A DNA stretch of 48,006 nt from a virus (lineage: Duplodnaviria; Heunggongvirae; Uroviricota; Caudoviricetes): the IMG/VR virus record IMGVR_UViG_2913147268_000002; one strand, given 5' to 3'. Position numbers and translations under genes: made by a program. A model generated the notes under the pieces. The model searched no databases. It was not told where the DNA came from and was given only the letters and a program-made list of their open reading frames with translations. Positions 1-18,556 of the stretch are shown in pieces (position 1 is the stretch's first letter; the number at the start of each line of letters is the position of its first letter).

Positions 1-522
1 CTAAAATCGTCGCTGGATACCCTGAAGGCTCACTTTCACCTTCACGCCGTCGGTGACGGACTGAACCTCCACGCTGACCGGATTGCCACTTCCGTCAACC
101 AGGCTTATCAGCGTGGTACCGGAGGATGGCAGCGTGATTTCACGGTCGAGCGTCAGCGTCCGGGTCTGGCTGTTCACCGCCAGCACACGACCACCGGTGC
201 TGATACCGGCATAGTCATCATCGCAGATTTCAATGACATCCCCCGGTACATGGCGAAGCCCTTCAGCACCCACGCTGAAGTCCACGGTCTGCGTTTCCAG
301 CAGCTCCGTTTTAATCAGCCACAGCCCGGCGCGGTGTGCCTGCCCCCGGCTGGTACAGCCAAAGGCATCCATCTTCGTGACGTTACGGCCGTAACGGGCA
401 ATGGCCTGCGTATCCTCCACGAGCTCTGTCGCCGTCTCCCAGCCGTTATCCGGGTCAATCCAGTTCACCTCAACGGCATTATGGCGGTCCTTCAGGGCGC
501 TGAAGCGCCGATTTTCCGGCGG
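1..522 (-). pseudogene. Internal fragment of lambda-type tail tip / host specificity protein J (about 170 aa)
   Basis: C-terminal 170 aa of the 1..1092 ORF (FSALKDRHNAVEVNWIDP...[16 protein letters not shown]) match the central region of lambda gpJ as I recall it. Homology stops at nt 28 and is followed by 8 unrelated codons and a stop. The upstream 190 aa of that ORF is an Arg-rich out-of-frame artefact. Confidence 0.7.
28..69. repeat. 42-bp direct repeat, copy 1 (encodes J residues [14 protein letters not shown])
   Basis: gctcactttcaccttcacgccgtcggtgacggactgaacctc is identical at 28-69 and 4077-4118. Confidence 0.9.
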
Positions 523-1486
523 CGGTGGCACTGGCTGAGGCCTGCCCGGCACTTGTTGACGCTGCACTGGCAGACGACGCAGCCGCTGTTTTTGAGCCTG
601 CCGCAGCCGAGGCGCTCTGTCCCGCTGCCGTTTCAGAAGACCTGGCGTTCGTCTCTGACGTTTTTGCCGCCTTCGCGGAATTTCCTGCCGCTGTTGCCGA
701 GGAAGCTGCGCTACTGGCGCTCGAGGATGCGTTCGTTTCTGATGATTTTGCCGCCTCTTTTGAAGCCGCCGCATCCCGGGCTGAAGTGGCAGCTTCTGAC
801 GCTTTCGTGGTCGCGGTGGATGCAGAAGTGGCTGCTGATTGTTGTGACGCTGCAGCATTCGTTTCTGACGTTTTCGCGGCACTGGCACTGGTAGCTGCCG
901 CGCTTTTTGAGGACTCTGCAGCGGCAGCACTTTTTGATGCTTCAGTGGCCTTTGTTGATGCCGTTCCTGCGCTGGAAGTCGCTGACTGAGCCGACGACGC
1001 GGCCTGTCCGGCTGACGTGCTGGCTGCGCGTGCTGAGCCTGCAGCATCAGTCGCATGGGTTGCCGCCTCACGGGCTGATGTGCTGGCATCACTGGCTGAC
1101 TTCTTCGCGGCTGCCGTGTTCTGTGCCACCACGGACGCGTTACGCGCCACCTCTTCCACCATCAGCTCAAAACGGCGCAGTGCCTCCGGACGGGCATCAT
1201 CCTCCGTCATGGCACCGAGAAAATCATTCAGCGTACCGGGTCGGGAATCTTCATACACTGTGATGGTCCCGGCATGTGACGGCGGGAATCCTTCCACCAA
1301 CAGAATAACGCTGTACTGACCGTACTCAACGTCCATACTGTAACGCCCGGCTTCATCCGGATTTTCAGATGCCAGCGTGTTCACCACCACCGTGGTACTG
1401 TTACGTTTTGCTTTCAGCTGGATTGTGCAGTTCTGTACCGGTTTTCCTGTGCCGTCTTTCAGTACACCTGAAATTTTTACTGCCAT
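479..1486 (-). pseudogene. Side tail fibre (Stf-like) N-terminal fragment, 3'-truncated
   Basis: MAVKISGVLKDGTGKPVQNCTIQLKAKRNSTTVVVNT... followed by Ala/Ser/Thr-rich repeats typical of lambdoid Stf. Homology ends near nt 506 (..AAGKSA) where it abuts the J fragment in another frame. Confidence 0.7.
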
Positions 1487-1494
1487 ATTCACCC

Positions 1495-1524
1495 CACAAA
1501 AAAGCCCGCCTGAACCGGCGGGCT
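1495..1524 (-). terminator. Intrinsic terminator downstream of lom
   Basis: Minus-strand hairpin AGCCCGCC-GGTTCA-GGCGGGCT followed by TTTTTTGTGGGG. Confidence 0.6.
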
Positions 1525-1550
1525 GTCATAACACTGTGTTACCTGGCTAA

Positions 1551-2150
1551 TCAGAATTTATAACCAACACCCACGATGAACCCGTCAGTGCGCCAGTCAC
1601 CGCTGCCGGAGCCTTCATAAGCGACATCAACGGCCACGGATTCGGTCGGGTTAAACTGCACGCCAGCCCCCCACGCCAGAGACGTGTTGCTGTGGCGACC
1701 GTCATCACTTCCGGTCAGCACATCGTGCGTTTTCCCCGTATTGTCGGTCACCTGCAGATAATCCCCGGAGAAAGTCGACACACGGCTGTAAGCCACACCC
1801 GCCATCGCATACGCGCTGAACCATTCATTCACGCGCACAGACGGCCCCGCCATTACGCTGAACCAGCGGTTACGAACGGAATCTTCATGCCAGCGGGTAT
1901 CGCTGTAACGGGTCAGCTGGCGATTCTTGTCTCCTGCATAGCTGAATGACGTCACCAGCCCCAGTGTGTCCGTAAACTCATAACGGTATTTCACGTTAAT
2001 CCCGTTCAGATCATCACTGCCGGGGACGTTCATCGAGGCATGAAGATACCCCGCGCTCAGCGTGGACTGATGTTCAGACGCCCATGCAGGCGCACCGGAT
2101 ACGGCCAGACAAATGGCTGCGGACAAAATGGCTGCACAAACTTTACGCAT
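1551..2150 (-). CDS. lom: Outer membrane protein Lom (Ail/Lom family)
   Basis: 199 aa with signal peptide (MRKVCAAILSAAICLAVSGAPAWA) and beta-barrel ending ...GVGYKF; sits immediately downstream of J as in lambda. Confidence 0.85.
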   Translation of the reverse strand: MRKVCAAILSAAICLAVSGAPAWASEHQSTLSAGYLHASMNVPGSDDLNGINVKYRYEFTDTLGLVTSFSYAGDKNRQLTRYSDTRWHEDSVRNRWFSVMAGPSVRVNEWFSAYAMAGVAYSRVSTFSGDYLQVTDNTGKTHDVLTGSDDGRHSNTSLAWGAGVQFNPTESVAVDVAYEGSGSGDWRTDGFIVGVGYKF

Positions 2151-2171
2151 AATTACCTCTCGCTTTTCTGC

Positions 2172-2200
2172 AATAAAAAAGGCGTCATTCCTGACGCCCT
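2172..2200 (-). terminator. Intrinsic terminator downstream of the J fragment
   Basis: Minus-strand hairpin GGCGTCA-GGAA-TGACGCC followed by TTTTTTATT. Confidence 0.6.
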
Positions 2201-2220
2201 TTATTGGGGTTATAAATATT

Positions 2221-4118
2221 TCAACGAATACTGATGCCGGAAGCGGCTTTTTTGGTCACAATCACCGTACAGTCGGTGATATTGCCTGCCCCCTGATTGC
2301 CTTTCTGGAAAATCTTAAACTCCAGAGTGACGCTTCCCCTGCCACTCGGCATATCAATAACCGCACTGTAACTACCGGGAATGGCCCCTTTAGTTTCTCT
2401 GGATGCGATTAATACGCCGTTTTTGCGAACTTCAAAACCATAACCCGTGTATCGCGTGCCTCCTGGGTTATTTCCGCTCCCCGGATCGTCATACGCTATA
2501 CCGTTAAAAATAATGGGCGGAATAATAATCTGGCGGTCAAAGTTATGATCATCGCTGATGGTGACTGTAACCGTACCGTTTGGTGTTTCCGTGTTACCCC
2601 ACGTACCGACTTTTTTCGGGAAGGCTTTTGATACAGCTTTAACGAAATCTCCTCTGACCTGGGTCGCCTCCAGCATGCCCTTAATCGTACAGTTCTGGTT
2701 AATCGTGACATTGTTGAGCGTTCCTGAGTTCGCATTCACACTGCCACTGATATCCGCATTTTTCGCCGTCAGTCTCCCGTCTGATGTCAGGGAAAATGCC
2801 GGAGGATTACCGCCGCTGGTAATGGTGGGGGCCGTCAGGCGTTTCAGGAACACTTCATTCATGAATATCTGATCGCCCTGACCAACAAACATCGGCTTTG
2901 TGTTGCCATTCGCAGGATTAATCATCGCAATCCTGTCTGCTGCCAGCAGCACCTGACTCTGCATGCCGTCAGGGGTGTTCTCAATACCGGCACCGATACC
3001 CGCAATATAAAGGCGTCCGTCCTGCATCTGCTGCAGCTTCACTGCCCACATGCTGTTCAGGTTATTATTTGTATCAACCTGAACCTTCTGTATCTGCTGG
3101 ATCGCTGCACTCTGGTCTTCCAGTTTCTTATTGACGGTCTGTGTTATTTCATTGCTGACATCCGTTATGGACGTCCTGATTTCAGTCAGGTCAGGCGCAA
3201 GCTGACCGTTATCAATCTGCGTCCACAGCTCCTGAGCCAGATGGGTTTTCCCTATCTCGCCTTTGAAAAAATCCAGATAGCCTGATGCATCATCACTCGG
3301 CTGACCGACAGCCTCCACGAATGCCGATTTGCCAACGGTGTTCACACTGCGAACGTAAAAATAATAATCATGGCCCGGTTTGATATTGATACTGGCGGCT
3401 ATCCAGTACAGTGCCGTACCAAGATAACGCGCGCTGGTTTCAACCTGCCTGATATCCGCAATCCGTTTTTCCGAGAACCAGAACTCAAACTGTACCGTCG
3501 GGTCATAAACCGCAAGATGCGGCGTGGCGGTTATCTGAAAATAGCCCGGCGTCAGCTCAATCCGCGACGGCGCTGCCGGTGCGGCAATCCGGAACGATAC
3601 CGACGCCGGATCGCCCTGCTGCCCCCACGCATTTACTGCCCGGACTGTCAGCCTGTAGTTCCCCAGCGCCAGTTGTGTGAAGCGGTATGTGGTTTCCGTC
3701 GTCCGGGCCGTGCTGACCAGCCGCTCACGGCCGTCATCCGCTGCCACGGTCAGGCGAAGCAGGAAGCTCACGCCCTTCACCACCTTCGGCGTGTCCCAGC
3801 GGGCCAGCACCTGGTATTCCCCGCTGTCTGCGGTGACTTCTGCGGTCAGGTGCTGCACCGCTGGCGGCGTGACACCATTTACCGTGCAGCTCTGGTCGCC
3901 GTCAAAGTGCGCCCCGTTATCCACGATGGCCTCTTTTTCCGGTACATGCTGCACGGCGGTGATGGCATACGTGCCGTCGTCGTTCTCACGGATACTCACG
4001 CAGCGGAACAGGCGCTGGCGCAACGTCGGCAGCTTCAGCCCCCATACGCTGTATTCAGCAACGCCGTCAGGAACACGGCTCACTTTCACCTTCACGCCGT
4101 CGGTGACGGACTGAACCT
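2221..4118 (-). pseudogene. Tail tip / host specificity protein J, C-terminal about 630 aa (5'-truncated)
   Basis: [66 protein letters not shown]... is collinear with lambda gpJ through its C-terminus. Homology continues without a start codon to the 42-bp repeat at 4077-4118, where it abuts Stf-like sequence. Confidence 0.8.
4077..4118. repeat. 42-bp direct repeat, copy 2
   Basis: Identical to 28-69. Confidence 0.9.
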
Positions 4119-5548
4119 CAAGCCGTGCTTGCGATTTGGGTATTATTCGTTCCCTGTCGCGCAGTTGGTGTTGTTGGCGTTCCGGTCAGTGCAGGACTAT
4201 TTAAGGGCGCTTTCTTGTTCGTTTCACCCATTACCGCCTTAACCGCTTTTGGCGTTGCCGCCAGTGACTCGGAAGTGCTGTTGGTCGCACTGCTGAGCTG
4301 TACTATCCCCTTTTTCGTCGTGCTCGCATCCTCAAGCGCCACGGCGGATGCAATATCCTCTGCCCGTTTTGCCGCTGTCTCGGCGCGCGTTGCCGCGGAT
4401 TCCGCCGTACTTTTGCTCTGAGCTGCCGCCGTCGCACTGCCAGCTGCCTCTGTCGCCTTCGTGGATGCCGTCGTGGCGCTGCCCTTTGCTGCTGACGCCT
4501 GTCTGGTCGCCTCATCTTTTGAAGCAGACGCAGATGATGCCGATTCAATGACAGCTCCGGCGAGATGAATATTACCGCAGCCAGTATCAGTAATGATTTT
4601 ATTATTGCCATAAGACCAGGAACCCTTGCACATCCAGTATGGATGGTTAAATGCTCCCTGAGAATCCAGCCACTCGATAAACTGTGCAGTCGTCCAGTTT
4701 CCTGTTGTTGTGCTTACTGACCCACCGAAGGCACGGCAGGCACCAATATTTTTCGTAAAGGTGTCTTTGCCAGGGATATCCGCACCGTTCTGATCTTTCT
4801 GCAGACGTTTCTCAGCATTGTCATTGGCTGCTTTTACTGCCTTTGGCGTTGCCGCCAGCGTTTCAGACGTGCTGTTGGTCGCGCTGCTTAGCTGGATTAT
4901 CCCTTTCTGTGCTGTCGTTGCATCCTGTGCGGTGTATTTCCCGGTGTCGCCGCCGGGCGAGGGTTTGATTTCCGGTGCCTTACCACTAATGAAGGCTAAG
5001 GTGCGACCGGCTACGTTCAGAATAGCAGTTGCCATACGATCGGGAATAATGCCACGACGCGCCCATGAGCTGAAATGCGTCGGGCGATTTGATGATACCC
5101 AGTTTTTGTTCGTTCGGGATGCCGAACCGTAATAACCAGACCCGGCAATATCAGGATCTTCTGACGGGTTGTTTGTCGGTGTATTAACTCCGCTACCATC
5201 GGTCATAAAGGGAACAAAATAAATCTGCTGGGATTCTTTACCTTTATATGCACCATATACCACTTCATATTGCGTACCGTGTTCTTGTTTCCACGCGTAT
5301 GTCGTGTCGCCACAAATCCAGGGGACTGATGCCGGACTTCCACCGTGACACTGCGCCGCCAGCCCGGCAAGGTCAGCACGGAACTGCTGTACCATTGCAA
5401 GAAATGCTGCTGGCTGCTGGGCGTAACTGGCATTCGTCATATCGAATTCCCCCTGCATCCAGCATATCGCCAGCAAAACGTTTTTCGGGTTTTTCTGCAA
5501 TGCTGCCTTCGTGCGGAAAAGCAGATCCTGATATAACGGCTTACCCAC
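4118..5548 (-). pseudogene. Chimeric ORF: SASA-type esterase fragment + tail-fibre tip segment + Stf central segment
   Basis: N-terminal part has ICWMQGEFDM, resembling the WYQGES motif of sialate O-acetylesterase (SASA) domains, but lacks the N-terminal half of such a domain. Middle has KGIIQLSSATNSTSETLAATPKAVKA and a Cys-containing tip (GNIHLAGAVIE). C-terminal part (SASSASASKDEATRQ...[10 protein letters not shown]) matches the lambda Stf central region and ends at a stop formed at the J-repeat junction. Confidence 0.5.
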
Positions 5549-6171
5549 TCCCCAGCGAGCCGAATCCTGACTGGCCCCCGTGGACTCGCTGAATGTCCCC
5601 TCCGTGCCCTGGGTGAATGCCGAACCACCACGACAGCATGGTACCAGCAGGATCCCCGCGTTATTAGGGATATACGGAAGCAGTTTTTTGGCAATATGTA
5701 AGCCCTGTCCGACACAGCCGTACTGCCCTTATACCCGGCATCTTTCGGACGATACGGCCCCTGATAATGTTCCGCGAACAGAATGCGCTCTGTGGCGGGG
5801 AAATACGCCCGCAGGCTTTCCTTGTTGCATCCGTTCCAGCGTCCGGACGGCTTCGCCCAGATAATATGGTTCAGCACACTGAAGCGTTCACGCATCATGA
5901 TTTCGATATCAGATGCCAGGCGATGACCACAGAACAGGTAAAGACTTCCGGCAGGTTTCAGCACCCGCCAGAACTGCGCCAGACACTGGTCCAGCCACTT
6001 CAGGTAATCATCGTCGCCCTTCCACTGGTTATCCCAGCCCTCAGGCTTCACTTTAAAGTACGGCGGGTCCGTGACTATCAGGTCAACAGAATTTTCGGGT
6101 AACGACCGGATAAATTCCAGGCAGTCGGCGTTGATTAACTCACAACTGGATATTTTTACAGTATTAGCCAT
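5437..6171 (-). pseudogene. N6-adenine DNA methyltransferase, 3'-truncated (homology about 5720-6171)
   Basis: N-terminal 150 aa carry the motif IV signature LIVTDPPYF and IIWAKP typical of beta-class N6-adenine methylases. No FxGxG AdoMet motif follows; the rest of the ORF is low-complexity read-through. Confidence 0.6.
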
Positions 6172-7845: not shown

Positions 7846-8028
7846 TTATTTCTGATTAGGCGTAATCAGTTCTTGTGGGGTGAATGCCGATTTCTCCCGA
7901 GTGACCTTAATGTTTTCTGGCAGGTGTAGCCCAAGTTCGCAGCGGCTCCGTGCTTCAATAATGCCATTGGTACCATCGGCAAGTACCAGGTGAACCGCGT
8001 CACCACGCTTTAATGTGAGTTTAAGCAT
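7846..8028 (-). CDS. Hypothetical protein (60 aa)
   Basis: Start overlaps the stop of the upstream gene (TAATG), suggesting translational coupling. Confidence 0.4.
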   Translation of the reverse strand: MLKLTLKRGDAVHLVLADGTNGIIEARSRCELGLHLPENIKVTREKSAFTPQELITPNQK

Positions 8029-8597
8029 TAGCGTATCCTCAGTGACCGTTCGCCGCGTTCCAGATGTGCGCCTGGTACCGGGTTTAATAACTCGGCTGGT
8101 GGTGTTTCTCCACGCGCCAGTATTTCGGCGGCAACCGCCTCCGCAGATTCAATCACTTCTTTAATGGCTCGCTTGTTTGGTGTAATAACCGTTTCTACAT
8201 CAACAAGTGACACGCCCTCATACTCATCCGGGATCTTATCTTTGCTATCGATAATTACCCGGATAGTCCCCTGTGCATCAGTAAATGTGTTTTTTGCGGT
8301 TTTCAGTTTATCCAGGCCAGCAGCTTGCAGGCAGGTGAGCATATGCTTTCGAATTGCTTTTTCCTTGCCTTCAAAGGACGTCTTACGGGTTGCCAGGCGA
8401 GACATTTCTTCAGCGCAGGTATTGGCATTGCCCTGTAAATTACGGCAGATGACCATCATGGCGTCCAGTTTGTCTCCCAGTTCTCCTTCCATGCCTTCAA
8501 GCGTGTCGGCGATCATCTCTGGCGTCAGTTCATCGGCGGTTTCTAACAGGTCAATCAGACTGGCATATTCTTTTGCAATAGCGATAGCAGTGCTCAT
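8028..8597 (-). CDS. Hypothetical phage protein (189 aa), recombination-module position
   Basis: ATGA overlap with the upstream 738-aa gene; acidic, helix-rich; function inferred only from position between the annealing protein and xis/int. Confidence 0.5.
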   Translation of the reverse strand: MSTAIAIAKEYASLIDLLETADELTPEMIADTLEGMEGELGDKLDAMMVICRNLQGNANTCAEEMSRLATRKTSFEGKEKAIRKHMLTCLQAAGLDKLKTAKNTFTDAQGTIRVIIDSKDKIPDEYEGVSLVDVETVITPNKRAIKEVIESAEAVAAEILARGETPPAELLNPVPGAHLERGERSLRIR

Positions 8598-10810
8598 GCT
8601 GTTTGCTCCTGTGCAGCGGTAAGGGCGGCGAGGCGTTCAGTTTTAATGTCGGTGATACGGCGCAGACGTGATCCCAGATACGATGAATATTCTTTATCGC
8701 CTTTGGTTTCCGCTGCTTTCCTGTGTACATCCACTTCGCGGGCGATGAGGCCAAATACCTTGTTTACTTCGTTGGCGGTTACCGCGGCGGCCAGCGTATT
8801 GGCAACGTTGATAAGCTTCTCATCCAGTTCCTTACGCAGACGGGTAGCATCTTCCGCATTCTCGCTGGCATTCTTGATATCAAACTCAGCTTTATTCCTC
8901 TGGCGGTATTCCGGATTGTCGTACAGGCCCATGAAAATATCGGCGCTGAATCCGAGAGGGGATAGCGCTTTCTTAACAGCATCCGTCCAGGATTTCTTCG
9001 GTGCTTCGCCGTCGCTTGTTGGTCCGTATTTAGTGTCGTAGATATAAGGTGTGCATCCGTAAGCCTCGGACTCACCGCGTACCCCATTCAATATGTACCA
9101 GACTCTCACTTTCATGGTGTGGTGCATTTCACATAGGTACCCGCCAACACCGTCTTGAATCAGATCCCATTCTATTTTTTCACCAACCTGTTTTTTGCGA
9201 ACTATTGGTGCGCCTTTATCAAAGCGCTCCTCCAGCACCTCTACCCCCCAGCCAATACCAAATGGCCCAAATTCGCGAGTCGCTTTCATCGCTATATAAG
9301 TGCCGTTGATGGATGTGCCGCCGCCATTCTGAGAGAAAGCACTGGTGAAGCGCTCATCGGTTTTGAATACGTTCTTCCACAATGCCAGGTTATCCGTGTC
9401 ATCTGAGTCCTTTAACTCCGTTTCGATAGCTGAGATTGCATTCTGCCGCTTGTGCTCTTCGGCATGGATCCGCTCAACCAGCGCGTCAACGTTCTGCACC
9501 AGATCCTTTACCTGCTCGCTAAGTTGTTCTTGTGGAGGAGTCTCTTCTGCCAGGGTAATAGCTGCAGGTTCCCTCTGTGATACGGCGTTATTTTCAGGTA
9601 CGTCATACACATGGCGAGGCGTGACAAACTGCTCACGCAACTGCTGCAAACTACGTTCTCCAGCATTTGCAGCTTCGCTTTTTTCGCCCTGATTTGAGGG
9701 TGTTTCTGACATCATCCCATCAATTGAGAATCGTCCGCCGCCGTGGTTGGTGACTTTTACATCATCCTTGGGTGCTGCTTCCTTTGGCTTCTCTTCAACA
9801 GCATTTGCATCACGCTGCCCGTTAGCTTGCAGCCAGTTGTCGATGTGACTGCGCAGGGATTGTGGGAAGTGGTACGTGTCTTTTGCGGGGGCGCTCTGAA
9901 TAACACCGAATACTGATGCGCGGTCATAGGCAAGGATCTGATCCGTTGTGCGCAAGGCCATTGACCAGCGTTTAAAATCTTCCCTGTCCTGACTGATTAT
10001 TTCGTCTGCCGCTTTCAGGATGCTGGGGGTGATTTTTTCCGGGGCAACAGGTAACAGGGCGCAGGCAATTTCACGATCCAGAGTGGCGTGAGTCTGTTTG
10101 TAAGGACGTGCGGATGCTGTTTCTGGTTTTACCTCCGGCAGCATTTCATCTCGTTTACCGGGATTCTCTACCCATTTTTTTATAAATTTGGAGATAGTCC
10201 AACTGGTCGGGTTTTGTTCCTGGGTATCGCAACTTGCCAAAATTGCATGTACCAGATTATTCAATCCAGCAATATGCATGTACTCGATGGGCTTACACGC
10301 CACCATGGCATCAAGAACGATGCGGTTAAACGCGTCAACCTCATCCTCACTGTCAGTATCACTGTTATCGAGCATCTCCAGGTATTCACGCGTCTGCACA
10401 AGCAATTCACTGTCGACTTCGTTGGCGTCGTGGCTGAACAGCAGAACGGCGGCGAATCGTTCACGAGCCGGCAGTTTCATCAGGTCGCTAACCTGTGAGA
10501 TATCTGCTGAACTGCAATCTGAATCAACAGGAGTGTTAACTACCCATTTTTCGCCATCAAAACTGTGTTCTGTGGCAAACGTCTCATCAAACTCACCGAC
10601 GCCTGGGCGCGGTTGGCCCGGGGCATCTTCCCAGATTTTAGGTTTGAAATAGTTGTCGCCGTGGTCAGGGTAGGCTTCCCACAATTTGCCGATGATGATG
10701 TTCTCGGCAACTTTTTTGTTAGGGGCGGCGATGGCGATGGCCAGCGCCGGGATCGCGCCGTTTTTGAGCGCGCCTTTTTTCGCTTCTAACAAGCCGTTAA
10801 AAATGGTCAT
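8594..10810 (-). CDS. Large recombination protein with C-terminal Rad52/Sak-like single-strand annealing domain
   Basis: C-terminal 160 aa (TYIAMKATREFGPFGIGWGVEV ... KKSWTDAVKKALSPLGFSADIFMGLYD) resemble the Rad52/Sak signature. N-terminal 500 aa unrecognised, with an acidic low-complexity stretch. RBS GAGGAAAGACC precedes the ATG. Confidence 0.6.
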   Translation of the reverse strand: MTIFNGLLEAKKGALKNGAIPALAIAIAAPNKKVAENIIIGKLWEAYPDHGDNYFKPKIWEDAPGQPRPGVGEFDETFATEHSFDGEKWVVNTPVDSDCSSADISQVSDLMKLPARERFAAVLLFSHDANEVDSELLVQTREYLEMLDNSDTDSEDEVDAFNRIVLDAMVACKPIEYMHIAGLNNLVHAILASCDTQEQNPTSWTISKFIKKWVENPGKRDEMLPEVKPETASARPYKQTHATLDREIACALLPVAPEKITPSILKAADEIISQDREDFKRWSMALRTTDQILAYDRASVFGVIQSAPAKDTYHFPQSLRSHIDNWLQANGQRDANAVEEKPKEAAPKDDVKVTNHGGGRFSIDGMMSETPSNQGEKSEAANAGERSLQQLREQFVTPRHVYDVPENNAVSQREPAAITLAEETPPQEQLSEQVKDLVQNVDALVERIHAEEHKRQNAISAIETELKDSDDTDNLALWKNVFKTDERFTSAFSQNGGGTSINGTYIAMKATREFGPFGIGWGVEVLEERFDKGAPIVRKKQVGEKIEWDLIQDGVGGYLCEMHHTMKVRVWYILNGVRGESEAYGCTPYIYDTKYGPTSDGEAPKKSWTDAVKKALSPLGFSADIFMGLYDNPEYRQRNKAEFDIKNASENAEDATRLRKELDEKLINVANTLAAAVTANEVNKVFGLIAREVDVHRKAAETKGDKEYSSYLGSRLRRITDIKTERLAALTAAQEQTA

Positions 10811-10840: not shown

Positions 10841-11161
10841 TTAGTAGGGGAGCTCATCGGTATCTGGCGTGTATTCGATGCAAAGTAACTGCTGGATTTT
10901 GTCATCGATAGCAGCAATACGCTGTTGGGCGTCGGCGACTGTTTTCTGTTTTTGTTCACGCAGTTGCTCGACCTGTAAACCGATGATGTCGATTGGCTCG
11001 GGCTGGTTAACGGTAATTTCAATTTCGCGGCTTTCCAGAAGGATGTACCTGTCTGGAAAATTTTTTGACATATCAACAGTCGCAACAAGCAGCTTTTCGT
11101 GGCTGAAAGTTGAAGTTGCATAATGAATAAAGAGTGTTACTGGGATGGTGCGCGCTTCCAT
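10841..11161 (-). CDS. Hypothetical protein (106 aa), first gene of the leftward operon
   Basis: Strong RBS AAGGAG 7 nt before the ATG. Confidence 0.5.
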   Translation of the reverse strand: MEARTIPVTLFIHYATSTFSHEKLLVATVDMSKNFPDRYILLESREIEITVNQPEPIDIIGLQVEQLREQKQKTVADAQQRIAAIDDKIQQLLCIEYTPDTDELPY

Positions 11162-11600
11162 AGCGACTCCTTGGTAATGTATACTCAGAGCCGATCAGCG
11201 AATATTGATCAGCTTCCATAGCGTCAGTGTCGTTGGTCTTTCCTCATCACAAGTTTGGTCACTTGTGATAAATCCGAATGGTTTGGTCGCCGTTCGGGGT
11301 AACTGGCCCGCCTTGTGCGGGTCTTTTGCTATCTAAAGGGTGCCGGTTACGTTTCCGGCGTCGTTATGTTTCCATTACGACCGTACAGGGCTGGTCAGGC
11401 CCGGGCTGGTCTTTCCTGTTTTGAGCTGGTCAGGCTCATGGTCAACGCTGGTCAGGCGTGGTACTTCCTCCGGTCTTTCCCTGGTGTCACGCTGCGGGTT
11501 TGGCCTCTCCTGTTGGGGACTCAGGCACAGCGATAAAACCTGGCTGTGTGAAAAAATGGCCCATCGTGCGGACTGGGCAAAGACTAAACACAGCAAATTG

Positions 11601-11690
11601 ATGATGGGCGCCCGGAATCGAACCGGGTAACGGGCAGGGAGTTCCCGTTAAACACCTGTTCACCACAACCGGGAGCGCACTCCGCCATTT
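11601..11690 (-). other. tRNA-like fragment (T-arm CCCGG-TTCGATT-CCGGG) inside a structured non-coding leader
   Basis: Minus strand reads ...CCCGGTTCGATTCCGGGCGCCCATCA. A canonical 7-nt T-loop with a perfect 5-bp stem, but no acceptor stem can be paired with the 5' side. Confidence 0.3.
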
Positions 11691-12029
11691 CAAAATTTAA
11701 CGACAAAGCTCAAAGTTGAGTCGATGAAGTGCGCTCTCGTGTTGTAGCCAGGACTCTTCCCTGGTGGTCACACCGTATCGCCTTGATGGTGAATCAATCG
11801 CTCATACCTGGCTGTGGCTTGCACATTCCGGCTACCTGCTATGGAGACAACGCGTTAAGGCTCCGCTTCCATCCAGACCGCTTCGACACATGTGCCATAT
11901 GCCGGTGAAGTCTTTCCCTCTGTCACCGTGTTGGCGCCGACGCGCAAAATTTGGTGCCGTCTTTCCGGCTGTCAGAACGTGTTTCTGAACAACTGCCGCT
12001 GGGTAAGCGTTGTTGATGAAAGTGACTTT

Positions 12030-12080
12030 ACAATTTGTATTTGTAATGGTCAATGTGTTTTTAAAAAATAATTTGTAGTG
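12030..12080 (-). promoter_or_regulatory. Candidate OL/PL operator-promoter region
   Basis: ATTTGTA-type half-sites (atttgtatttgtaatgg, aatttgtagtg) just beyond the repressor 3' end, matching those in the cI-cro intergenic region. Confidence 0.35.
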
Positions 12081-12171
12081 AGGGGCAAAAAAATATTCAC
12101 TGTGTAAAGGTGTTTTTGTGTTAGGGGAAAGTTGCATGCCAGCAGCGGCTGGCCTGGAAATTTGAACTGAA

Positions 12172-17495: not shown

Positions 17496-17719
17496 ATTGA
17501 CTTAGAAAAAGTCCGGGGCTATAGTTTCCGCGCAGCCGCAAAATCGGTTGCCGGGATTGGCGTCCCGGATATCTAAGTGACGCATAGCCGCGTTAGCGGT
17601 TTTTTTATGTGTTAGGCACGGCCACATTCGCATTATGGTGGGCTGTGTGGGGGCTTCTGTGGAAGCGCCGGGTTCACTTAGCCGGTTACGCCAACCCTGC
17701 ACAGCTCACCACCAGATGA

Positions 17720-18556
17720 TTGGCGTCGCTGGTGGTGATGAAAAAAACACTAAGTGAGGCCACTGCGATGACAGTCCAAATATCTGCGGAATCCCTTTCT
17801 CCGCTACATCATAACCAACTTCCCGTCATCACTACTGAATTGCTTGCCAGTTTGTATGGCACGGAAGTAAATGGTATCCAGCAAAACTTCAAGCGCAACA
17901 TCGCCAGATTTGTCGTAGGAAAGCATTTTTTTAAGCTGGAAGGTAATGAATTACGCGACTTCAAAAACAGACTGACAGATAGTCAGTCAGTTGCTAAACA
18001 TACCCGATCCCTCATTCTCTGGACAGAACGCGGCGCAGCTCGCCATGCCAAAATGCTGGAAACAGAACAGGCCTGGGAAGTTTTCGAAAAGCTGGAAGAT
18101 TGTTATTTTAGCCAGCGTCCAGAGAGGCGGAGTACAACTACCGATGACCGTACTCCCTTGCGTGATGCCGTTAATATACTGGTCGGCAAGAAAGGCATGA
18201 TGTATCCCGATGCCTACACCATGATTCATCAACGCTTCGCCGTCTCTCACATAGAACAACTGTCACAGACGCAAATGTTAGAGGCGATTGAATACATCCA
18301 CTGCCTGCTACTCGATGAAAATCACCCAACCATTCCAGATTTTTCTTTTATCACCACTATCAAAAATGGAAAAGTGACCGGGATGCGCCATGTTGCCAAA
18401 GGCGAACATCTGATGACCTTTGACGCTTTCAAAGAGATCGCTGAGCGGGCAGGGTATCTGGTGATCCACAGCGACAATCTGCGAAGTATGACACTGGATA
18501 AATTGATGGTAATGGGGAAAAAGTCGGCTATATCCGTTGCTAATTCAGCATTTTGA
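17720..18556 (+). CDS. ORF6N-domain protein, putative antirepressor
   Basis: N-terminal region LPVITTELLASLYGTEVNGIQQNFKRNIARF...LILWTERGAARHAKMLETEQAWEVFEKLED resembles the ORF6N/KilA-N-related domain of phage antirepressors; start uncertain (17720, 17738 or 17768). Confidence 0.6.
   Translation: MASLVVMKKTLSEATAMTVQISAESLSPLHHNQLPVITTELLASLYGTEVNGIQQNFKRNIARFVVGKHFFKLEGNELRDFKNRLTDSQSVAKHTRSLILWTERGAARHAKMLETEQAWEVFEKLEDCYFSQRPERRSTTTDDRTPLRDAVNILVGKKGMMYPDAYTMIHQRFAVSHIEQLSQTQMLEAIEYIHCLLLDENHPTIPDFSFITTIKNGKVTGMRHVAKGEHLMTFDAFKEIAERAGYLVIHSDNLRSMTLDKLMVMGKKSAISVANSAF

Follow-up and report, generated by a model that had tools for sequence, protein, structure and literature searches.

A predicted Rad52-type annealing protein carrying a RecE-like N-terminal module in the early-left operon of a ZF40-like prophage

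The window analysed here, a 48,006-nucleotide stretch of Caudoviricetes DNA (IMG/VR virus record IMGVR_UViG_2913147268_000002), holds a ~42-kb ZF40-like prophage whose early regions are lambdoid and whose tail is contractile. In its leftward early operon lies an open reading frame (ORF) for a 738-residue protein (8594..10810, minus strand; ATG start, stop codon included; RefSeq WP_000151806.1). We conclude, with a probability of about 0.75, that this protein is a single-strand annealing recombinase belonging to the early-left ('Rec') module of the prophage, with an acidic, non-catalytic, RecE-like N-terminal module (N-module), no detectable nuclease domain and a translationally coupled accessory protein of the Gp157 family. 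The public labels that call it an 'exonuclease' look wrong.

The assignment is carried by the C-terminal third of the protein, in which fold and profile evidence predict a Rad52-fold single-strand annealing core (residues 471-640; 8891..9400, minus strand) bearing the motifs SINGTYIAMKATREFGPFGIGW and PKKSWTDAVKKALSPLGF, followed by a three-helix C-terminal tail (residues 641-738; 8597..8890, minus strand). AlphaFold models were obtained separately for residues 1-345 and 465-738. The second of these shows a beta-rich core with a predicted local distance difference test score (pLDDT) of 80-92, a long helix and the three-helix tail (pLDDT ~87-92), and its core agrees with the Rad52 N-terminal domain fold, a beta-hairpin and three-stranded sheet bridged by a helix. 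When the model was compared with the PDB using Foldseek, the only significant matches were four human RAD52 chains (5jrb, 8bjm and 8rjw; E values 3.3e-6 to 5.3e-6, probability 1.0, template modelling scores of 0.45-0.59 on the target, 162-174 aligned columns), the best match outside RAD52 having an E value of 0.06. At the sequence level, the Pfam family Rad52_Rad22 (PF04098) matches 21 of 24 family members in one register throughout, with one of them above threshold. The alignment of these 24 sequences contains 25 invariant columns, all present in the query, including DGEAPKKSxTDAxKKxLSxLG, with the lysine pairs K605/K606 and K613/K614 of a KK..TD..KK motif. Furthermore, residues ~472-660 are 40-55% identical to stand-alone proteins of 240-280 residues from Pseudomonas, Yersinia and other phages and prophages, a few of which already carry the name Rad52-like. 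The tail is 61-77% identical in relatives and is kept in fused and in some stand-alone homologues; we infer it to be a partner-binding region.

We also looked for the two Rad52 signature motifs, YIEGxxxIxxANxxFGxxGW and KxAxTDxxKRALxxFG, the second of which includes the DNA-binding basic pair. An hhalign comparison of a core-only profile with residues 48-160 of a provisional RAD52 sequence gave an E value of 0.0021 with both motifs in register: SINGTYIAMKATREFGPFGIGW paired with the first RAD52 motif and KKSWTDAVKKALSPLGF with KEAVTDGLKRALRSFGN, including the basic pair corresponding to RAD52 K152/R153. We take this pairing as a lead in keeping with the fold result, not as independent proof. 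Taken together, the data support a Rad52-type annealase at the C-terminus, its function being predicted from fold, motifs and gene context. A first-pass annotation of the sequence had described a protein far longer than its C-terminal Rad52/Sak-like annealing domain, and the RAD52-only Foldseek matches, the Pfam matches across the family and the stand-alone homologues bear this out; that the region might fail to score as an annealing-protein family, which would have spoken against the proposal, is not what we found. The motifs had been assigned to the C-terminal quarter, which holds for the core (23% of the protein) but understates the annealase part, since core and tail together make up the C-terminal third.

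In predicted fold, in both motifs and in its place in an early recombination module, the protein resembles Sak of lactococcal phage ul36 and other phage annealases of PF04098. These are stand-alone proteins of ~180-280 residues, whereas the 738-residue protein adds ~470 residues of unrelated module and scores below the Pfam threshold. The long N-terminal extension of the first-pass annotation is real, at ~470 rather than 500 residues. For residues 1-345 AlphaFold gives a confident model, with a mean pLDDT of 85, in which three subdomains are resolved, all encoded, like the rest of the gene, on the minus strand. N1a (residues 1-93; 10532..10810) is a small alpha/beta subdomain in common with DnaQ-type fusions (32% identity to the mEp460 protein), N1b (residues 106-225; 10136..10495) is acidic and helical with a net charge of -11, and N2 (residues 241-335, of which 241-330 form the subdomain in the model; 9806..10090) is a helical subdomain homologous to the non-catalytic RecE residues ~262-370. 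They are followed by an acidic linker (residues 336-470; 9401..9805; net charge -12) that is disorder-prone by composition and poorly conserved outside a linear motif, KVTNHGGGRFSIDGMMSE (residues 352-369; 9704..9757), with the consensus [KQ][VI]xNLGGGxFS[IV][DE]GLxG. An acidic, disordered middle had been described for the protein; the linker answers to that description, but the most acidic stretch (residues 121-160) lies inside a confidently modelled helical subdomain. Over residues 1-470 the net charge is -29, which argues against direct DNA binding by the N-module, and residues 1-563 of RecE are likewise acidic (-42). A precomputed Pfam accession, PF27430.1, is present on all full-length homologues; the fragments on which it occurs point to the N1 region as its likely place.

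The public labels invite a different reading, namely that the protein is an exonuclease (exonuclease VIII or RecE-like) with a divergent nuclease within its N-terminal 470 residues. RefSeq lists it as 'hypothetical protein' and in some genomes as 'exonuclease family protein', ZF40 gp07 is annotated 'exonuclease', and in PHROGs the protein falls in phrog_2489 ('exonuclease') with a full-length match of 1318 bits. The homology to RecE is genuine as well: N2 matches phrog_607 with an E value of 6e-25, residues 233-336 align with positions 262-370 of the 877 of the RecE model NF007259 (E 1.9e-12), and BLASTP pairs residues 243-308 with residues 263-332 of K-12 RecE (E 0.007). These comparisons place the homology in the non-catalytic N-terminal part of RecE and its family, the matched segment lying outside the RecE nuclease domain, residues 564-866 (PMC11611040). 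The NF007259 score of 46.1 bits compares with an equivalog cutoff of 1269 bits, so that full-length membership of RecE is not indicated. Searches with phmmer using RecE 564-866 matched 13 other N-module carriers, and searches using the DEDD domain of homologue P0290 matched 11 others; neither matched the 738-residue protein, which also gave no Pfam match to PF16473. No catalytic or nuclease domain was found in the N-terminal part by Pfam, NCBIfam, PADLOC or PDB sequence search, Pfam applied to the whole protein returned no match at E values up to 1, and the confident N-terminal model had neither a structural relative in BFVD at E values up to 0.001 nor a nuclease-like neighbour. The protein therefore has no detectable nuclease domain, and we consider the exonuclease reading extremely unlikely. 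The labels are best explained by annotation transferred through the common N-module. The first-pass annotation had proposed that HMM (hidden Markov model) searches at the domain level, structure prediction and a check for nuclease motifs be applied to the N-terminus, and had guessed at a fused exonuclease or a new accessory domain there. Those analyses found folded subdomains and no PD-(D/E)XK or DEDD domain by HMM or fold, which leaves the first guess unsupported; the second is right, but the region also occurs elsewhere, the module being common to the non-catalytic N-terminal regions of the RecE family.

The comparison with RecE can be drawn further. Like the gene for RecE (the 866-residue exonuclease VIII of prophage Rac), the gene described here occupies a leftward operon upstream of xis and int and has a stop-start overlap with the gene that follows, and both proteins have a large acidic N-terminal region with a homologous N2 ahead of a C-terminal DNA-processing domain. 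That C-terminal domain is a PD-(D/E)XK nuclease in RecE and a predicted annealase here, the downstream partner is RecT in one case and Gp157 in the other, and RecE-related proteins carry Pfam Exonuc_VIII (PF06630) at the extreme N-terminus where the 738-residue protein has N1. With no detectable nuclease domain and a score well short of the equivalog cutoff, the protein is not a RecE/exonuclease VIII member in the functional sense. Our literature searches returned no described function of the RecE N-terminus and no Rad52-RecE fusions, and the passages searched in two surveys of the Rad52 superfamily (PMC2896510, PMC11783212) make no mention of such fusions.

The unusual length of the ORF raises the question of whether it is an artefact or a decaying gene, in which a RecE-like remnant and a stand-alone annealase were joined by frameshift or deletion in a defective prophage, so that only the C-terminal part, or nothing, is functional. 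Stand-alone annealase homologues do exist, the linker is poorly conserved, and RecE-like genes adjoin annealase genes in Rac, which makes fusion by deletion a plausible origin. Against such decay, relatives with 35-72% protein identity from E. coli, Salmonella, Pectobacterium and Stenotrophomonas phages preserve the architecture, as do at least 23 clusters at 50% identity, and N1a and N2 are as well conserved (66-70%) as the annealase core (72-73%) in Salmonella and BUCT708. Full-length homologues are abundant in Salmonella (710-757 residues, 54-72% identity) and are found in the phages BUCT708 (53% identity) and ZF40 (gp07; 35% identity), which according to their records come from hospital sewage and from an induced lysogen, respectively; tblastn was needed to find the phage homologues, as megablast against the phage collection gave no match. 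The 3.1-kb stretch with the gene was found in 463 of the 5426 complete E. coli genomes, O25b:H4-ST131 strains among them, in every case on the chromosome; it is full-length in 449 and at least 99% identical in 422. The ORF is preceded by a Shine-Dalgarno sequence, GAGGA, 7 nt 5' of its ATG, and no in-frame start codon with a ribosome-binding site was found ahead of the C-terminal domain from which a separate annealase could be made, so the annealase domain would be produced only within the long protein. These observations confirm that the ORF is real and intact and not a sequencing frameshift artefact; two genes joined by a frameshift, which the first-pass annotation had named as a possible refutation, are not what the relatives show. 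We regard the artefact or decay explanation as very unlikely, although fusion by deletion may well be the origin of the now-conserved gene.

In order to see how the N-module is distributed, we searched residues 1-345 against 1.84 billion representative proteins, which returned only 136 clusters, and parsed the 82 N-module proteins of at least 450 residues with one seed profile per domain. Single-linkage clustering of the C-terminal tails merged everything through the common linker and was replaced by these per-domain seed searches. A Rad52-like C-terminal domain was found in 23 clusters (50% identity), a RecE-type PD-(D/E)XK nuclease (5'-3') in 13, a DnaQ-like DEDD nuclease (3'-5', Pfam PF16473) in 11 and a fourth domain (phrog_26058) in 19, the C-terminal domain of the remaining 16 being partial or not settled. 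The linker motif, with the core NLGGGxFSIDGL, is present in 37 of the 82 proteins and in all four C-terminal classes (13 Rad52-like, 5 PD-(D/E)XK, 6 DEDD, 9 fourth-domain and 4 unsettled clusters), as well as in ZF40 gp07. From residue frequencies we estimate that the seed pattern alone would be expected by chance about three times in this set, the NLGGG flank lying outside that pattern. K-12 RecE holds only a degenerate copy, SRGEFVDGI. N1 and N2 occur together with Rad52-like, PD-(D/E)XK (for example in P0271), DEDD and fourth-domain C-termini, and many RecE-type and DEDD-type members have Pfam Exonuc_VIII at the N-terminus instead of N1. As far as such sequence comparisons go, the N-module is shown to be an independent, portable unit shuffled among C-terminal domains. 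The fourth domain (~190 residues; P0280, P0283, P0285, P0335 and others) has an invariant motif, LTYRQQLTIAALQGLCANPA...DDLPxMA, and no Pfam or PDB sequence match. Four Rad52-type fusions of 804-844 residues (P0006, P0012, P0013 and P0016) contain an extra N1b copy of ~110 residues between N1 and N2, so that the module grows by internal duplication.

Among the relatives, the DnaQ-type fusions of phages Tritos, mEp460 and PhiR42_1 (phrog_2082) offer an instructive comparison. They have N1a (32% identity), N2 (39% identity) and the linker motif in common with the 738-residue protein, occupy the same slot just upstream of xis and int, and are annotated as exodeoxyribonuclease VIII, but they end in a DEDD nuclease (PF16473) and have no Gp157 gene downstream. 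In mEp460 and PhiR42_1 the fusion is alone in the slot, with neither an annealase nor a Gp157 gene. The 823-residue 'exodeoxyribonuclease VIII' of mEp460 (locus L006, 3501-5972) and of PhiR42_1 (locus L007, 3501-5972) has a DnaQ-like DEDD 3'-5' domain and not the PD-(D/E)XK domain of RecE, which makes the exonuclease VIII name misleading there.

One possibility for the N-module, which we put forward tentatively and would not yet count as probable, is that N1a, N1b, N2 and the linker motif form a portable docking platform. With it, lambdoid phages would bring whichever DNA-end-processing head is attached to a single shared partner, from host or phage, that acts at DNA ends or replication forks. 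Alternatively, the N-module could be an acidic domain that mimics DNA or is autoinhibitory, occupying the annealase groove until activated, or inhibiting a host nuclease or defence protein. The strongly negative charge of both this N-module and that of RecE would suit such a role, as would the lack of a structural relative for the module and the presence, as the operon neighbour, of a putative end-protection or anti-RecBCD gene (PMC12315714). No search, however, showed similarity to known DNA-mimic or anti-nuclease proteins, and the attachment of the module to an annealase as well as to enzymes that differ in polarity fits a common targeting function at least as well. We judge mimicry or autoinhibition unlikely, and the evidence here does not separate it from the adaptor idea.

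The annealase gene is followed by a gene for a 189-residue protein (8028..8597, minus strand), which the first-pass annotation had described as translationally coupled and of unknown function. Its position fits the former, as the stop codon of the long ORF and the start codon of the 189-residue ORF overlap in ATGA, placing the second ORF for translational coupling. The protein can, on the other hand, be assigned: residues 6-156 match Pfam Sipho_Gp157 (PF05565) with 99.9 bits (cutoff 28.6; E 2e-28), and it matches phrog_253 ('Mu Gam-like end protection') with an E value of 2e-46, making it a member of the Siphovirus Gp157 family. The order of an annealase gene and then a Gp157 gene with stop-start overlap is kept in ZF40 (gp07-gp06), in BUCT708 and in Pseudomonas phage PseuP_222, where a Gp157-family gene directly adjoins a stand-alone Rad52-type annealase as it adjoins the 738-residue gene here. 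Since the synteny holds with a stand-alone annealase too, the annealase-Gp157 pair is the conserved unit and the N-module an addition to it.

These findings bear on a published survey. Zheng, Casjens et al. 2025 (PMC12315714) describe 'RecE-2' proteins, lambdoid early-left proteins that are distant RecE kin lacking a nuclease domain, to which no function is assigned; they score ZF40, whose Gp157 homologue is gp06, as having an anti-RecBCD gene, and present its Rec module as the sole one with such a gene but no strand-annealing protein. Residues 450-718 of ZF40 gp07 match our Rad52-like profile with an E value of 4e-96, which would reclassify the ZF40 module. We could not confirm that gp07 is one of the 'RecE-2' proteins.

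Within its prophage, the 738-residue gene occupies the slot that exo-bet-gam takes in lambda and recE-recT in Rac. The module is like lambda Red (Exo, Beta, Gam) in being an early-left module that pairs a Rad52-superfamily annealase with a putative protector against host nucleases. It differs from Red in that there is no phage exonuclease, the annealase is of the Rad52/Sak type and not the Beta type, and the putative Gam analogue is unrelated in sequence. No exonuclease gene is annotated anywhere in the prophage, and none in the ZF40 and BUCT708 operons. We propose that the Rad52 domain oligomerises, by analogy with Rad52/Sak-type proteins, and that 3' single-stranded DNA (ssDNA) would be bound in a basic groove lined by the invariant K605/K606 and K613/K614, complementary strands then being annealed without ATP. 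As the operon is without an exonuclease gene, the ssDNA substrate would come from host nucleases or replication. Annealing would have a part in circularising the genome, in recombination linked to replication and in exchange with related prophages, and the coupled Gp157-family protein would act as an accessory that assists or protects ends, a Mu-Gam-like or anti-RecBCD role having been proposed for it by others. The N-module could be an adaptor and no enzyme, tethering its DNA-end-processing domain to a common partner, with the NLGGGxFSIDGL motif of the linker perhaps as the partner-binding peptide.

Several observations weigh against this interpretation of the annealase and its neighbours. 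The C-terminus of the query itself scores 13.6 bits (E 0.066) against Rad52_Rad22, below the gathering threshold of 20.3 bits. A close homologue, P0196 (44% identical to the query domain, E 1e-48), passes with 23.8 bits, so that membership of Rad52/Rad22 by the Pfam threshold is borderline for the query. PDB sequence searches with the whole protein, the family profile and the core-only profile gave no meaningful match and did not find RAD52, the likeness having emerged in the PDB only through fold comparison. The hhalign probability, with the provisional RAD52 sequence, was only 13%, and in that alignment RAD52 residues R55 and R156 have no conserved counterpart in the query. As to the partner gene, homology to Mu Gam went undetected (BLASTP to Mu Gam gave an E value of 1.5, and Mu Gam belongs to phrog_491 as opposed to phrog_253), and a Mu-Gam-like role of the Gp157 protein rests on the annotation of others, which we could not confirm. 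Finally, that the N-module acts as an adaptor, or that the motif takes part in binding, is pure inference on our part.

The wider operon and prophage provide the setting for these genes. The gene order is cI-like repressor, a 1-kb gene-free stretch, orf106, the 738-residue gene, the Gp157-family gene, orf60, a DUF4224 excisionase-like gene and the integrase. The upstream 106-residue gene (10841..11161, minus strand; phrog_2479) belongs to the same leftward operon, and the start of the downstream 60-residue gene (7846..8028, minus strand; phrog_2482) overlaps the Gp157 stop; both are of unknown function, and PADLOC assigned no defence family to any of the four operon proteins. The 1 kb between orf106 and the cI-like repressor (window 11162-12171) is without a convincing ORF and lacks annotation in all 448 E. 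coli genomes that have it at 80% coverage or more. Within it, 33 nt at about window 11230-11262 are 100% identical to an annotated CRISPR array sequence of E. coli strain 2020CK-00188, which looks like a natural CRISPR spacer against this prophage. On the early-right side (window 17519-17716 and 17720-18556), Rfam matches to isrK, a C4 antisense RNA and its a1/b1 target sites lie directly upstream of an ORF6N-domain gene; C4 RNA and ORF6N gene together look like a P1/P7-type C4-controlled antirepressor unit in a lambdoid early-right region. To the left of the integrase, at window 1-6171 (minus strand), another prophage of lambda-like type contributes its tail-end genes, namely a fragment of the J tip protein, Lom, a tail fibre and an N6/N4 methylase ORF whose C-terminal half is apparently out of frame. 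The window contains no tRNA gene. ST131 strain 4993 has the same ZF40-like prophage adjoining tRNA-Leu beside pgsA. Given the neighbouring lambda-like tail genes, the missing tRNA gene and the tRNA-Leu site in strain 4993, the genome from which the window derives seems to have either tandem prophages or a different attachment site.

What is new here is a Rad52-type annealase that carries a RecE-type N-terminal module, annealases of this kind being already known in themselves. The protein is present in some 8% of the complete E. coli genomes examined (449 of 5426), and relabelling it as an annealase likely corrects a widespread annotation. It also changes how the recombination capacity of prophages is scored, as with ZF40, classed as lacking a strand-annealing protein in a published survey. 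With no phage exonuclease beside it, the annealase-Gp157 pair is a candidate minimal recombineering system for Enterobacteriaceae. More broadly, because the N-module occurs on an annealase as well as on enzymes with opposite polarities, the N-terminal region of RecE is an independent, selectable unit, and its function becomes approachable through four natural fusions that can be compared and a single short motif that is conserved. If the docking-platform reading were true, it would provide a first handle on the part played by RecE's N-terminal ~560 residues, and could account for the need for full-length RecE in efficient linear-linear recombination.

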